This document shows, piece after piece, positions 749 to 31,405 of a DNA stretch of 32,000 nt. Both the position numbers and the translations under genes were made by a program. Position 1 is the stretch's first letter, and every line of letters starts with the position of its first letter. The notes below the pieces were generated by a model. The model was given only the letters and a program-made list of their open reading frames with translations. It was not told where the DNA came from and did no database searches. This DNA comes from Vibrio alginolyticus NBRC 15630 = ATCC 17749 (GTDB lineage: Bacteria > Pseudomonadota > Gammaproteobacteria > Enterobacterales > Vibrionaceae), in contig NC_022349.1 of the NCBI RefSeq assembly GCF_000354175.2, forward strand, positions 1,110,001 to 1,142,000, read 5' to 3'.

Positions 749-1357
749 ATGGCTAATATCATTTTTATCGACAACTTTGACTCGTTCACCTACAACCTTG
801 TGGATCAATTCCGCTCGCTAGGTCACTCAGTCAAGATTTACCGAAACAACATCCCAGCAGAAACCATTGAACAAGCGGTAAACGAGCTTGAAAACCCAGT
901 GGTTCTGCTATCGCCAGGCCCAGGCGCACCGTCAGAGGCAGGCTCAATGCCAGAGCTTATCCAACGCATGAAAGGCAAAGTGCCGATGATCGGGATTTGT
1001 CTTGGTCACCAAGCGATTGTTGAAGCATACGGCGGCACCGTTGCTGGCGCAGGCGAAATCATTCACGGTAAGGTCTCTATGATGGAGCACCAAAACCATG
1101 CGATTTACCAAAACCTACCATCACCACTTGCGATTGCACGTTACCACTCGCTGGTTGCGACCAAGGTTCCTGAGAGCCTAACCATCACAGCAGAAGTGGA
1201 TGACTTGGTAATGTCTGTTGTACATGAAGAAGATAAAGTTTGCGGGTTCCAGTTCCACCCGGAATCTATTATGACGACCTACGGAGCAACACTGTTGGCC
1301 AATGCCATTGAATGGGCACTTGAAGAACAAACTTCAGCTAACCCACTCACTGCTTAA
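749..1357 (+). CDS. trpG: Anthranilate synthase component II (class I glutamine amidotransferase), separate from trpD
   Basis: 202 aa. The GATase nucleophile context is GICLGHQ and the His/Glu region is FQFHPES. It starts 16 nt after the trpE stop. Confidence 0.95.
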   Translation: MANIIFIDNFDSFTYNLVDQFRSLGHSVKIYRNNIPAETIEQAVNELENPVVLLSPGPGAPSEAGSMPELIQRMKGKVPMIGICLGHQAIVEAYGGTVAGAGEIIHGKVSMMEHQNHAIYQNLPSPLAIARYHSLVATKVPESLTITAEVDDLVMSVVHEEDKVCGFQFHPESIMTTYGATLLANAIEWALEEQTSANPLTA

Positions 1358-26720: not shown

Positions 26721-26758
26721 AAGGGCTCCAGAGGTAACTCTGGAGCCCTTTTGTTTTG
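26721..26758 (+). terminator. Strong rho-independent terminator after ygiQ
   Basis: A perfect 13-bp stem: AAGGGCTCCAGAG (26721-26733) pairs with CTCTGGAGCCCTT (26738-26750) around the loop GTAA, followed by TTGTTTTG. Confidence 0.85.
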
Positions 26759-26959: not shown

Positions 26960-29900
26960 ATGAATAATCCACTTCCCCCAAAAACTTCTATGTTCTGGTA
27001 TGACAACAGCTATACCTATGAGGAGGCCGTTCAGGCATTTGAAAGCGATGGTACACTGAAATCGCTGAATATCGTTCCAACCACGGAATCCGATGATCTT
27101 GCTGGCTCACCCCCAGAGCGCAGTATGTTTTGGGAGGGAGAAACAAAAAAAATCGATCCGCCACCGCCGTCTGAACCAGAGCCTCTCAATTTAAAAACTG
27201 AGAAAGAAGCAACGGAAGCATCACCTGCGCACTTTATCCCAGTCCGCTATGCCATCGATCAGCTAGAAACAGAAGAGACACAACCTTTTGGTTTGCCTGA
27301 AGAATGGAAAGGGCAAGGCCCAGCCAAACTCAATACCGTTGGTTACACCCTGCGTCAACTGCGCGACGGTTGGCTGTATGTCTATGATGCAATCAACAAA
27401 AGCTTAGACGAATACGAAATCAAAGGAACGCAATTCACGCTCTATAAGTTGGGAGAATCAGAAAGCCCAAAATCAGAGCAGCGTGGGACACCACAAGATG
27501 CAAAGCCCTTCCTTACTTACGTCAACGGAAGCGTACTATCGATTTGCTTCTCTGAGCACCGGTGGACATGGCACACGTTCATGCGCGTACTTAACAATCC
27601 GAGTAATCATATCGATCGCATGCAAACCATTGTTCTGTCCTCAAACGAGAATCAGCACAACATTGCACCAATAGATAAGTTAACCCAAGTCGCTGATATT
27701 GAATCTTCTGCCGTCGATGATGGTCGCTTTGCGGATTCTGGCATCGCCACCAAAGCAGATGAAGATGGTTCTGTCTTTAAACCTGTCGCAGTCGAAAGCG
27801 ATTTAACCTCTGCGATTCCAGAAGAAGAATCAGGCTACTTCGTCGCGATAAAAGATTACGCCGCAGACATTCAAGATATGTCACTGCATTTTGTTGGTGC
27901 CGCAAGCCCTTACCGCCTTTTCACTGACCAGTTTTCAAACCAGTGGAACTTGATGCAGACCGCCATGCAACTGTGTATGTTTGGTGCAAGTGACGAGATA
28001 GACATGCCAGCTAGCGTTAAGCGTAACGGCGAAGAGCTGTCGTTTTATACCGACATGGCTGACTATTATGACTCCTCTCACCAACTTGATTTGGCAGAGC
28101 AGAACAAAAGCTCAGTTCAGTCCGGCTATCCTGCTAAATTTTCCGCTGGAGCGATTGAATCACACCAACATACCCAAAGTGACATTGCTAAAGCGATACA
28201 GGACAAATATCGAATTTCTGCGAGCCGTTTTGGTAAATACGAACAATGGATAGCGACTGAACGCTGGCGTCAGCAGCTCAACTGGAAGCAAATGCTGAGC
28301 GAGATGCAAGAGCTGTCAGAACAAAAAGAAACCATGCTAGCCCAAGTGGTTTCGGTCAAACGCGACTTTATCGCAGTAATGGAGTCCTTAACGCCGCATC
28401 ATCTCGAAAGAACCTTCGACCTATACAGCGAAGACACGCAGTACAGCTTGTATCAACTACACAAGCAAGCGGTTGAGTCATTTACTTTGGTGATACAAGA
28501 AGAAGACCGCCAATGGGCTGAAAGCCAATGGGAGAAACCAACCAGTTTACTTGCTCTCTATGCCTCTGGGTTTAGTCGTAGTTTATTTAAAGTGATGGAG
28601 AAGAATATTACAGAGGCGCTTGATGAACAGTCGATCGTCTCAGGAAATCCTGATCCTGATAATCAGTTGATGGACCAGATATCTGATACCAGCAACCGCG
28701 TGAATATGTACTCTAAGATCATGGACTTTGTTTCCAATCCAAACACTGCGGAAACAGCCTTTCTCAAAGATATCGCCAAAGGTTTCCAAGAGCTGGATAT
28801 TATTTTTAAATCTGCAATAGGTGCGCTTGCAAAAGGCGTTGTAGAGTTTGGTGTTAGCATGACCTCACAAGTATCAATTTCGCTGATGCCTGTTTTCGCT
28901 AAACCTCTGAACCGTCATAGCTATTATTTATTTGCCGTTATTGCAGAACATATGGCACACAACATGCCCGTAACAATAAAAGAAGGTTACGCTCGCGATT
29001 TTAAAAAATGGAAAACACGCGTAAATGATTATCTGATTAAGCTCGAAAAAAACGATGCAATCATTGCTGACTTCCAGAAAAATAACCGCAAAGCTGACTC
29101 TAAATACACAACAGCTTTAAAAAATAAAAAGACTATTAAGAAGGCTCTCGCTGTAGCTACATTGGAGTACCCGCAGTACATTGAGTTACCTGATGATCTA
29201 CCTCAAAGAACCATCGAGCTTAGAACGCGGATCGTGATGAATAAGCTCAATGATTTGAATAAACTGTTCGAGAATGCCGGTGGTCTAGGCTTTCTGGCAT
29301 TAATATTTAACTGCATCGCGCTTGGTGATGCCATGAGCAGTATTCAAGACACGGGGTTAATGTCCTCAGATGAATTTTTGGATATCCAGCAAAAGTTATT
29401 TTACACAGTCAACGCTTGGACAGGTGTTCGTACAGGTAAGTTATGGGAGAAAGTGAAGGGTGAACCTAGGTTAAGGTCACATTCATATAATGTCTTAAAA
29501 AAGTTAGTGAATAGAAACGAAGATACCTTTAAAAACTTAAACCTTGATGACCTAAAGGTATTCAATAAATGGCTAGCAATCACAGGGGCTTTAGGTGCGT
29601 TAGCTTCGGGTATTGAGGCTTACCGTTCTTGGCAGAGTGCTGACAAAGTTTATGGTCAAGAAAAATATCTGCATGTAGCAAATTCCCTAGTATTAACAGC
29701 AATGTCAGCTGTCGGTATATTCCAAGTATACGGAGGGTTAACTGGACAATTTGCATTAAACTTATCCTTTGGCGGGCCTATAACGGCCGGCCTGGTTATT
29801 CTCACGATTGCATACCTAGCCATCAATTATAAGTTGAATAAACTGAAACAAGATGATTTCCAAAAATGGTTAGATAAACTGCCTTGGGGTTATCACCCGA

Positions 29901-30457
29901 CTCGCACTCAGTGGAGCCAATCTTCGAGCTTACCCGAAAGAGAGAAGCATAATTCAGCATTGGTTCAGCAAGCGCTGTTTGACTTACAATCTATTATTCA
30001 ACAGCCTACGGTATACCATCAACCTATTGAAAAAGTACAAGCTTACCCAGGTTACACACATCGTGAGTTAATCGGTTTGGAAGTGCATATTCAACTGCCA
30101 AGGCGTGCTGCAACGAATGGTATTACGTTGAGAACTAACAGCAAGGCAACAGAAGATGATTTGATGTCAGGCTCGTGGCATCAAAACGCAGATTTAGTCA
30201 CGCTACAAACTCAAGATCAAGCGAGCAAAGAATCACTGGTGTACAAAGTAACCTTGCCAATTGAAGAAGCAGATCATTACCTTGCAATGCAAGTAGCTTA
30301 CGATGTGGAAGATGATGCCCCTGCTAAGCGTGAGTATTGGTTCCAAAACGGCATAAAACAGAGTGCAACTTATGGCATTATTTCAGACAATATCAAACAA
30401 GACATAATTAAAAAAACACTCACCCCCGCAGTTGGCACACTAGGTTTTCAGGAGTAA
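26960..30457 (+). CDS. Candidate T6SS MIX-type effector with a C-terminal membrane-inserting (pore-forming-type) region
   Basis: 1165 aa. All three MIX motif elements are present in order in the N-terminal region: FIPVR, LRDGWLYVY, ICFSEHRWT. There are four hydrophobic helices at aa ~774-957 and an unassigned C-terminal ~208 aa. I spotted no enzymatic signatures. The start is fixed by an in-frame TAG at 26930-26932. The SD is weak. Confidence 0.75.
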   Translation: MNNPLPPKTSMFWYDNSYTYEEAVQAFESDGTLKSLNIVPTTESDDLAGSPPERSMFWEGETKKIDPPPPSEPEPLNLKTEKEATEASPAHFIPVRYAIDQLETEETQPFGLPEEWKGQGPAKLNTVGYTLRQLRDGWLYVYDAINKSLDEYEIKGTQFTLYKLGESESPKSEQRGTPQDAKPFLTYVNGSVLSICFSEHRWTWHTFMRVLNNPSNHIDRMQTIVLSSNENQHNIAPIDKLTQVADIESSAVDDGRFADSGIATKADEDGSVFKPVAVESDLTSAIPEEESGYFVAIKDYAADIQDMSLHFVGAASPYRLFTDQFSNQWNLMQTAMQLCMFGASDEIDMPASVKRNGEELSFYTDMADYYDSSHQLDLAEQNKSSVQSGYPAKFSAGAIESHQHTQSDIAKAIQDKYRISASRFGKYEQWIATERWRQQLNWKQMLSEMQELSEQKETMLAQVVSVKRDFIAVMESLTPHHLERTFDLYSEDTQYSLYQLHKQAVESFTLVIQEEDRQWAESQWEKPTSLLALYASGFSRSLFKVMEKNITEALDEQSIVSGNPDPDNQLMDQISDTSNRVNMYSKIMDFVSNPNTAETAFLKDIAKGFQELDIIFKSAIGALAKGVVEFGVSMTSQVSISLMPVFAKPLNRHSYYLFAVIAEHMAHNMPVTIKEGYARDFKKWKTRVNDYLIKLEKNDAIIADFQKNNRKADSKYTTALKNKKTIKKALAVATLEYPQYIELPDDLPQRTIELRTRIVMNKLNDLNKLFENAGGLGFLALIFNCIALGDAMSSIQDTGLMSSDEFLDIQQKLFYTVNAWTGVRTGKLWEKVKGEPRLRSHSYNVLKKLVNRNEDTFKNLNLDDLKVFNKWLAITGALGALASGIEAYRSWQSADKVYGQEKYLHVANSLVLTAMSAVGIFQVYGGLTGQFALNLSFGGPITAGLVILTIAYLAINYKLNKLKQDDFQKWLDKLPWGYHPTRTQWSQSSSLPEREKHNSALVQQALFDLQSIIQQPTVYHQPIEKVQAYPGYTHRELIGLEVHIQLPRRAATNGITLRTNSKATEDDLMSGSWHQNADLVTLQTQDQASKESLVYKVTLPIEEADHYLAMQVAYDVEDDAPAKREYWFQNGIKQSATYGIISDNIKQDIIKKTLTPAVGTLGFQE
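27230..27568 (+). other. MIX (marker for type VI effectors) motif region within the effector ORF
   Basis: shhPhR is F92-R96 FIPVR (27233-27247). hRxGhhYhh is L134-Y142 LRDGWLYVY (27359-27385). hhF/YSxxxWS/T is I195-T203 ICFSEHRWT (27542-27568). Confidence 0.7.
29279..29830 (+). other. Cluster of four predicted transmembrane/hydrophobic helices in the effector C-terminal region
   Basis: The helices are aa 774-795 GGLGFLALIFNCIALGDAMSSI, 871-888 WLAITGALGALASGIEAY, 906-927 VANSLVLTAMSAVGIFQVYGGL and 939-957 GPITAGLVILTIAYLAINY. They are glycine/alanine-rich helices of the kind seen in pore-forming toxins. Confidence 0.6.
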
Positions 30458-30460
30458 CCC

Positions 30461-31405
30461 TTGGCATATTCACCGTTTTATATCACCCCAGAAGAATTGG
30501 CGGTTTATCAAGAAGCACAAGAGCAAGAGATTCTCAAAGGGGACAATTTAACAACATGGCATAAGTATGATGTAGAAGAGCCATTTCGCTACCATTACAA
30601 GTTAACGGCTTTGCCATTTATGAGCTTCTTATTTGTAATTGTATTTTTGACACACTCAAGTGATACGCTTGTCGTGACCTTTTTTGGCCTTATCTTGTCA
30701 GTAATGATGGCCGGGATCTTTTATCTTACGATTGGCCTCGACTATCGCTATGACTATATCTTTTCTGACAAAGGCTTTGTGATGAAGAAGCGTCGCAACA
30801 TGCCTAAGTGGGCGAATACCGCCACACAAGCCGTTGGCTGGATCGGTGCGGTAGTTTGCGTTTTGATGGTAGCGGTAGTTGGCCCGATGGCGTTAGCTGG
30901 AGCGGGCGCTCTTATTTTATTCTCATTTGGTATGTTAAAACGCAAGCCCGATGAACCAACAGAAGTGAGAATTGGAGAGCGTGAAGATTGGTTGTTTGCC
31001 GACTACAACAAAAAGCGCAAAGTGATCCAGTTCTACTTTAAGCAGGATAAGTGTGAATATATCGATATGGAACACAACACTATTGTCCGTTCACATAGTA
31101 GATCTGATTGCTACGTATTTTTCAAAACTGAAACGGACTTAGAATCGATGGTAAATCAGTTAGCTACGGAATATAAGCTGGATTGTACAGAGGTAGATGA
31201 CCACAAAAAGCTGTTTGAATCGAAGCCAGAATCAAGGCTCTTTAGTATTCCGGTTTGTAGTAGAGAATATCAAACCGAAGAGGTATTTGATTTAAGGGCG
31301 TCAAATGCCCCACTTCCTGAGCGTGAATACCTTTACAACGGCAAGTGGCAAACGGAATCTGAGATTGAAAAATCAAAATCTGAACTAACGGCAGCCAAGG
31401 TATAA
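30461..31405 (+). CDS. Candidate cognate immunity protein (four-TM inner-membrane protein with a ~150-aa soluble C-terminal domain)
   Basis: The TTG start lies 6 nt after AGGAG (30450-54), and that SD sits inside the last codons of the effector gene, whose stop is 30455-57. TM segments are at aa ~48-65, 70-92, 124-141 and 143-159. The position immediately 3' of a toxin gene is typical for immunity genes. The ORF call is solid; the function is inferred. Confidence 0.6.
   Translation: MAYSPFYITPEELAVYQEAQEQEILKGDNLTTWHKYDVEEPFRYHYKLTALPFMSFLFVIVFLTHSSDTLVVTFFGLILSVMMAGIFYLTIGLDYRYDYIFSDKGFVMKKRRNMPKWANTATQAVGWIGAVVCVLMVAVVGPMALAGAGALILFSFGMLKRKPDEPTEVRIGEREDWLFADYNKKRKVIQFYFKQDKCEYIDMEHNTIVRSHSRSDCYVFFKTETDLESMVNQLATEYKLDCTEVDDHKKLFESKPESRLFSIPVCSREYQTEEVFDLRASNAPLPEREYLYNGKWQTESEIEKSKSELTAAKV

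Follow-up and report, generated by a model that had tools for sequence, protein, structure and literature searches.

The stretch of Vibrio alginolyticus NBRC 15630 DNA analysed here (the window; 32,000 nucleotides, positions 1,110,001 to 1,142,000 of contig NC_022349.1) carries a gene for a protein of 1165 amino acids (aa), followed by a gene for a predicted membrane protein of 314 aa (Table 1). An earlier note, made from the letters alone, had singled out the end of the first product, where hydrophobic helices precede a long C-terminal tail. On the strength of its sequence, we assign the protein to the VasX/BTH_I2691 family of type VI secretion system (T6SS) effectors. It matches the NCBIfam model NF041559 (T6SS effector BTH_I2691 family protein) with 357.6 bits, for a cut-off of 150 bits, over aa 91-1002 and model positions 12-858 of 858. 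The hRxGhhYhh motif of its MIX domain reads LRDGWLYVY (aa 134-142), and the MIX region aligns to the MIX domain of Ptx2 (PDB 9qpv; E 1e-8 with the family profile) and also matches Tke5 (9r8g). The identical protein is present in databases as 'T6SS effector BTH_I2691 family protein [Vibrio]' on 48 contigs, mostly of V. alginolyticus and including NBRC 15630. Hydrophobic transmembrane (TM) helices joined to a large end domain are an already known design: the gene is annotated and the family has been structurally characterised. The earlier note had named VasX as an analogy. The picture of a membrane-inserting, VasX-like toxin stands, and the relation goes beyond analogy, the protein being assigned to the family itself (NF041559, PF20249).

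Table 1. Features of the toxin-immunity locus, in positions of the window
Feature	Position (nt)	Strand	Residues (aa)	Basis or detail
Terminator-like hairpin and T-run	26723..26757	+		Read from sequence, after the upstream ygiQ-type radical-SAM gene (Pfam)
Effector gene, VasX/BTH_I2691-family MIX T6SS toxin	26960..30457	+	1-1165	
MIX / VasX_N domain	27233..27643	+	92-228	Pfam PF20249, E 2.2e-22
Fifth segment, amphipathic/hydrophobic	28793..28894	+	612-645	Hydropathy peak 1.45
Hydrophobic helix 1	29279..29344	+	774-795	Hydropathy peak 1.63 (window 774-792)
Hydrophobic helix 2	29570..29623	+	871-888	Hydropathy peak 1.24 (window 867-885), 44% Gly+Ala
Hydrophobic helix 3	29675..29740	+	906-927	Hydropathy peak 1.51 (window 910-928)
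Hydrophobic helix 4, strongest	29774..29830	+	939-957	Hydropathy peak 1.91 (window 937-955)
First tail part, putative end of the conserved helical core	29831..29929	+	958-990	Within NF041559, which ends at aa 1002
C-terminal domain, predicted long helix (991-1013), then β-sandwich of ~8 strands	29930..30454	+	~991-1165	Tail-only AlphaFold2 model
Putative cognate immunity gene	30461..31405	+	314 in all	TTG start; sequence, hydropathy, tblastn

The earlier note had placed the helices and the tail exactly (aa 774 starts at nt 29279, and 208 residues follow from aa 958), and its description of four Gly/Ala-rich hydrophobic segments before a 208-residue tail is confirmed. We computed hydropathy on the Kyte-Doolittle scale in windows of 19 residues, for which the classical TM threshold is 1.6. 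This threshold is passed by helices 1 and 4 only, and the Gly+Ala content of the four segments is 26-44%. The fifth segment was missing from the earlier list; about half of the relatives described below have a counterpart of it, comparably far from their C-terminus. Among 2000 composition shuffles, the probability of at least five segments at 1.2 or more was 0.066 and that of a maximum of at least 1.9 was 0.14; hence, the hydropathy of the single sequence alone is not beyond chance. The pattern is nonetheless real because it is conserved across relatives. A scan of one genome per species gave 45 related loci, from which we extracted 32 full-length proteins of Vibrio, Photobacterium, Aeromonas, Aliivibrio, Salinivibrio, Moritella and Enterovibrio, including V. 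cholerae VasX (1085 aa). In all 32 the series of segments is in register, with nearly fixed distances to the C-terminus: helix 1 lies at about -390 in the protein's own clade and at about -375 in most of the VasX clade, the position of helix 2 is conserved, and the last segment is always the strongest (1.9-2.8). Among close homologues, variability is highest in the hairpin of helices 3 and 4 (aa 901-960), with ~0.5 identity.

The tail (KLNKLKQDD...GTLGFQE) starts at nt 29831 and is closed by the stop codon at 30455-30457. The earlier note had treated all 208 residues as one separate domain after the TM region, larger than a simple pore former would account for and of a family it could not name. 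None of this was upheld. The tail is in two parts, the end of the helical core (aa 958-~990) and a separate domain (aa ~991-1165). The first part holds the near-invariant motif W970-L-x3-P975-W-G977, which is shared with Ptx2 (..WLLSTPWS), and the family profile aligns aa 958-990 colinearly with Ptx2 963-993, at a score below threshold; these Ptx2 residues lie within the return to the scaffold after the TM domain (bioRxiv 10.1101/2025.04.30.651342). The first ~35-45 residues of the tail accordingly belong to the conserved helical core, whose scaffold they would close, and are not a separate domain. Nor is the tail unusual, as 154-222 residues follow the last strongly hydrophobic segment in 32 of the 32 full-length relatives. 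The last residue covered by NF041559 is aa 1002 of 1165 here and aa 942 of the 1085 in VasX; in the C-terminal fragments of Ptx2 (986 aa) and of a Tke5-like protein (765 aa) it is residue 789 and residue 601, respectively. The uncovered C-terminal residues thus number 143-197 in these four proteins. Finally, the order of MIX, helical/TM and C-terminal immunoglobulin (Ig)-like regions has been described as the signature of the VasX family across four phyla, with the Ig-like domain after the TM region as a stated hallmark (PMC12718326). As far as library searches go, the earlier note was right to see no known motif in the tail: neither Pfam nor NCBIfam gave a match beyond aa 1002, and the tail profile found among PDB sequences only a chance match to DNA polymerase IV (E 0.45).

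Structure prediction, which the earlier note had proposed for this end of the protein, gave a confident model of the tail and a poor one of the helices. The tail-only AlphaFold2 model (alignment of 20 sequences) has a predicted local distance difference test (pLDDT) score of 89.6 and a predicted template modelling score of 0.82. It contains helices at 961-973, 991-1013 and 1144-1153 and strands at 1017-1029, 1032-1047, 1055-1059, 1072-1075, 1092-1099, 1107-1115, 1123-1131 and 1136-1138, and it ends with a short final strand after the last helix. The full-length model (alignment of 31 sequences) shows the same secondary-structure elements in the end domain, which is its only usable part: pLDDT is 50 overall and 30-60 across aa 730-960, aa 300-1013 are predicted to be helical with low confidence, and Foldseek found no significant match with it. 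Foldseek matches of the tail model were weak, and the best of them were all Ig-like folds (best E 3.7e-3, probability 0.96). Most of the near-invariant residues of the end domain are aromatic, Pro or Gly (Y1095, Y1107, Y1114, Y1126, W1073, P1047, P1100, G1071). From the model, aa ~991-1165 are most likely the Ig-like β-sandwich end domain of the family, its likeness to the end domains of Ptx2 and Tke5 being drawn from the model and their published descriptions.

The relatives of this domain lie within the family. A search with aa 1001-1165 against 1.84 billion representative sequences matched 16 clusters. Apart from the weakest, a 2485-aa PKD-domain protein (E 6e-4) that we judged uninformative, those that we checked come from the same family, as C-termini or fragments. 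With Z set to one million, a profile of the tail picks up relatives in Photobacterium at E 1e-9. When the tails of the protein's own clade are compared by hhalign with VasX-clade tails (V. cholerae, Aeromonas, Aliivibrio and others), they align over 112 columns with a probability of 95.5% and E 1.6e-8, and we consider the tail homologous to that of VasX because of this match. The alignment spans the WL..WG motif, the long helix and the first strands.

Two members of the family have been solved by cryo-electron microscopy. Ptx2 of Pseudomonas aeruginosa comprises a MIX domain (36-258), a helical scaffold (259-816 and 963-999), a TM domain (817-962) and, at its C-terminal end, an Ig-like domain. 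As long as the protein is soluble, the scaffold encloses the TM domain, which is made up of ten short helices; mutations in this domain lower toxicity (bioRxiv 10.1101/2025.04.30.651342). Tke5 of P. putida has five predicted TM segments at 622-803, partly buried, and a β-rich region (864-996) that forms an Ig-like sandwich packed on one helix (PMC12909789). Both structures (9QPV, 9R8G) thus show MIX, scaffold, buried TM domain, short scaffold return and Ig-like end in this order; WLxxxPW is likewise placed after the last hydrophobic helix, and the described fold of their end domains fits the helix and β-sandwich predicted here. A nearer relative comes from the same species. Va16152 of V. alginolyticus 12G01 is a MIX IV effector, predicted to be pore-forming and encoded outside the T6SS1 cluster, which is secreted by T6SS1 and kills cells without Va16147; it has 1169 aa according to the supplement, and homologues of Va16152/Va16147 with the same synteny were reported in NBRC 15630 (Salomon et al. 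2015, PMC4549250). The two proteins share the MIX IV domain with a C-terminal membrane-active region, a similar length, and a two-gene unit outside the T6SS1 cluster with the immunity gene downstream. Because the published synteny statement covers NBRC 15630, which carries the identical protein, the gene in the window is very probably an allele of this validated T6SS1 effector. The listed 1169-aa alleles are ~82-83% identical to the 1165-aa protein overall, with the differences mostly in the C-terminal half.

We put the probability at roughly 85% that this is the end of a VasX-family pore-forming T6SS toxin that acts by release and insertion of its helices. The N-terminal MIX domain would load the protein onto the T6SS. 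By analogy with Ptx2 and Tke5, the Gly/Ala-rich helices (aa ~770-957) of the soluble toxin would be packed inside the large helical scaffold and set free upon delivery into the periplasm of a rival; they would then enter the inner membrane and form an ion-conducting pore, and the membrane potential would collapse. The tail would add no second activity. Its first residues, with WLxxxPWG, would close the scaffold, and the remaining ~165-175 residues, not themselves toxic, would most likely dock or orient the toxin on the target membrane, as the equivalent region of Tke5 suggests, and may tune the target range. Family membership, the conservation of helices and tail, the predicted β-sandwich and the conserved downstream gene are results of this analysis, whereas burial and release of the helices, depolarisation and membrane binding by the end domain are carried over from relatives. 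The earlier note had offered burial of the helices in a soluble fold as a refutation of pore formation. That reasoning is flawed because the helices of Ptx2 and Tke5 are buried in the soluble state and yet proposed to insert into membranes after a conformational switch.

Several observations weigh against this interpretation. The hydrophobicity of two of the four helices is moderate, and the full-length model (pLDDT 50) says nothing firm on the burial of helices in the 1165-aa protein. With the tail model, Foldseek gave no match at E <= 0.001, and neither 9qpv nor 9r8g is among the 50 PDB matches listed. Comparison by hhalign of the tail with the single Ptx2 and Tke5-like tails detected nothing significant beyond the WLxxxPW motif. 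No gene for Hcp, VgrG, PAAR or a DUF4123 adaptor is found in the 32-kb window. The identity with Va16152 is unconfirmed by accession, resting on the synteny statement and on length, and the molecular weight of Va16152 (132,356 Da) matches none of the listed 1169-aa alleles exactly. Concerning the tails, those of Ptx2 and the Tke5-like protein are not detectable to each other by profile comparison either; since Ptx2 and Tke5 have both been solved as Ig-like, sequence carries no information at this distance. Forced global alignments to the Pseudomonas tails reached a probability of ~5% and were left unused for residue mapping.

The truncations of Tke5 bear directly on the role of the end domain. 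Region 864-996 is non-toxic, is dispensable both for periplasmic toxicity and for neutralisation by the immunity protein, and binds vesicles of E. coli lipids and of dioleoylphosphatidylcholine (DOPC) (PMC12909789). They leave it extremely improbable that the tail carries a second toxic, enzymatic activity or serves as an oligomerisation domain that builds the pore, two of the roles suggested in the earlier note. A large, well-folded and conserved domain after a membrane-inserting region might be expected to have such a role, and the pore stoichiometry of the VasX family is not known; against this, the predicted fold is a plain β-sandwich, its near-invariant residues form no catalytic-looking constellation, and no enzyme family was matched in Pfam, NCBIfam, PDB sequences or Foldseek. 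We rejected the enzymatic activity on the lack of an enzyme-family signal and on the Tke5 data.

Receptor binding, the other role suggested there, agrees with the published proposal for Tke5, whose authors named the equivalent region a receptor-binding domain (PMC12909789). In its strict form, the end domain would be a specific module for an inner-membrane or periplasmic protein of the prey and would set the target range, instead of being a generic lipid tether. This is a refinement of the pore-forming interpretation and not a contradiction of it. The domain evolves fast, as expected of such a module (16 cluster representatives among 1.84 billion; 77% identity among close homologues whose N-terminal halves are ~95% identical), and Bte2, a divergent VasX-family toxin of Bacteroidales, requires the Rnf complex of its target (PMC12718326). 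We still regard a specific receptor as unlikely: the Tke5 domain binds plain DOPC and E. coli lipid vesicles with no protein present (PMC12909789), the harm that V. cholerae VasX also does to amoebae speaks against a receptor of narrow range, and the authors of the Bte2 study were unable to assign receptor-binding modules and left open the use of receptors by proteobacterial members (PMC12718326), for none of which a receptor is known. Quite unlikely is the narrower version in which the end domain of the Vibrio clade is a fast-evolving, clade-specific module for an inner-membrane component of rival vibrios, in the manner of Rnf and Bte2. If it were true, the range of competitors killed by each strain would depend on the allelic differences within aa 991-1165.

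The toxin gene is followed by its putative immunity gene. The TTG start of the latter lies 3 nt past the TAA stop of the toxin gene, and a Shine-Dalgarno sequence (AGGAG, 30449-30453) is located in the last codons of the toxin gene, 7 nt 5' of the TTG. This arrangement suggests that the two genes are translationally coupled. Upstream, the terminator-like hairpin would set the pair apart as a unit of its own. The product, with about three TM segments by hydropathy, is annotated in NCBI as exactly this 314-aa protein, and tblastn places homologues directly 3' of the toxin gene in nearly all related loci, with one at the position of TsiV2 in V. cholerae (E 9e-7, a weak homology). We take it to be the cognate immunity protein of the toxin. 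Tandem arrays of two to four immunity paralogues follow the toxin gene in related loci L003 (7484-10324), L004 (7538-10363), L011 (7564-11436) and L044 (7381-10073); in the window there is only one such gene, and the next gene, of the GtrA family, is encoded on the opposite strand.

Among close Vibrio homologues the toxin is a mosaic, aa 1-540 being ~95% identical and aa 541-1165 50-88%. A polymorphic toxin that exchanges its C-terminal half together with the immunity gene would be expected to vary in this way. Such block-wise variation, which includes the end domain, could also mean that the domain serves the attacker, either by contacting the VgrG/PAAR spike or an unlinked adaptor during loading or as a surface recognised by the immunity protein. 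The orphan setting of the pair can be read in the same sense when compared with the Pseudomonas relatives, which lie directly behind hcp-vgrG-DUF4123. A role of this kind is very unlikely: the MIX domain of Tke5 makes most of the adaptor contacts and its immunity protein neutralises the helical region alone (PMC12909789), the immunity protein of Ptx2 is predicted to bind sensor helices (bioRxiv 10.1101/2025.04.30.651342), and variability peaks in the hairpin of helices 3 and 4, not in the end domain. Because the pair is an orphan and the window holds no spike or adaptor gene, the locus does not reveal the loading route of the MIX IV effector.

The comparison with the best-known relatives delimits what is shared. 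V. cholerae VasX (VCA0020) belongs to the same NCBIfam family (394.7 bits) and likewise runs from the MIX domain through the helical region and the hydrophobic segments to the tail, but the two proteins are only ~22-35% identical, VasX is 80 aa shorter, with a tail of 174 aa, and vasX lies in an auxiliary T6SS cluster behind the adaptor gene vasW, whereas the V. alginolyticus gene is an orphan. The Pseudomonas proteins share the architecture and the MIX region, but their end domains have no detectable sequence similarity to the one described here and their immunity proteins are unrelated to the 314-aa protein; the Tke5-like locus uses DUF6708.

Pore-forming colicins (A, E1, Ia, N) hide a hydrophobic helical hairpin in a soluble helical bundle, act from the periplasmic face, depolarise the membrane and are countered by a membrane immunity protein. 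They provide a working likeness to VasX-type toxins, whose membrane action is summarised elsewhere (PMC3857813), but one without a sequence match to the colicin pore domain: no colicin family was found in the protein by Pfam at E <= 1, nor any colicin by searching PDB sequences with the protein and with the family profile. The V. alginolyticus protein is also far larger and is delivered by the T6SS, whereas colicins are imported through receptors and Tol or Ton, and its extra binding-type domain follows the pore region, while colicins have theirs N-terminal to it.

The value of the locus as a discovery is small, given an annotated effector, an experimentally validated allele in the same species and a published hallmark of the family. 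Whether the Ig-like end domain tethers the toxin to membranes in general or binds a specific receptor is a question common to the whole field. The alleles of the Vibrio clade, with near-identical N-terminal halves and variable toxin halves, end domains and immunity proteins, are natural chimeras for work on target range.

In some relatives the reading frames, as called or followed, are split or short. The C-terminal parts of Ptx2 and the Tke5-like protein were taken from split genes in contigs of P. aeruginosa (L047) and P. cremoricolorata (L050). In these, the VasX-family gene is called as two open reading frames, overlapping in L047 (6001-9526; 250 and 986 aa) and adjacent in L050 (5001-7988; 225 and 765 aa), which may be frameshifted pseudogenes or sequencing errors. 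In loci L002, L006, L007 and L008 (V. diabolicus, V. mexicanus, V. maritimus), the frame that we followed stops early, at 71-879 aa, while tblastn still matches nearly the whole query, which suggests frameshifts or pseudogenisation in these assemblies.

The surroundings of the pair are of a housekeeping type. It is flanked by the ygiQ-type radical-SAM gene and the gtrA-like gene, and the window further contains metE and its LysR regulator, a gene for an EAL/PAS protein and one for a type II secretion system pilotin. A search of the toxin-immunity DNA against plasmids gave no match. Within the toxin, the MIX domain is preceded by an extension of ~90 residues that contains the motif SMFW twice (aa 10-13, 26987-26998; aa 55-58, 27122-27133). 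We know of no described function for this motif. Its second copy (M56, W58, G60, T62, K64) is invariant, even in homologues at 36-41% identity.

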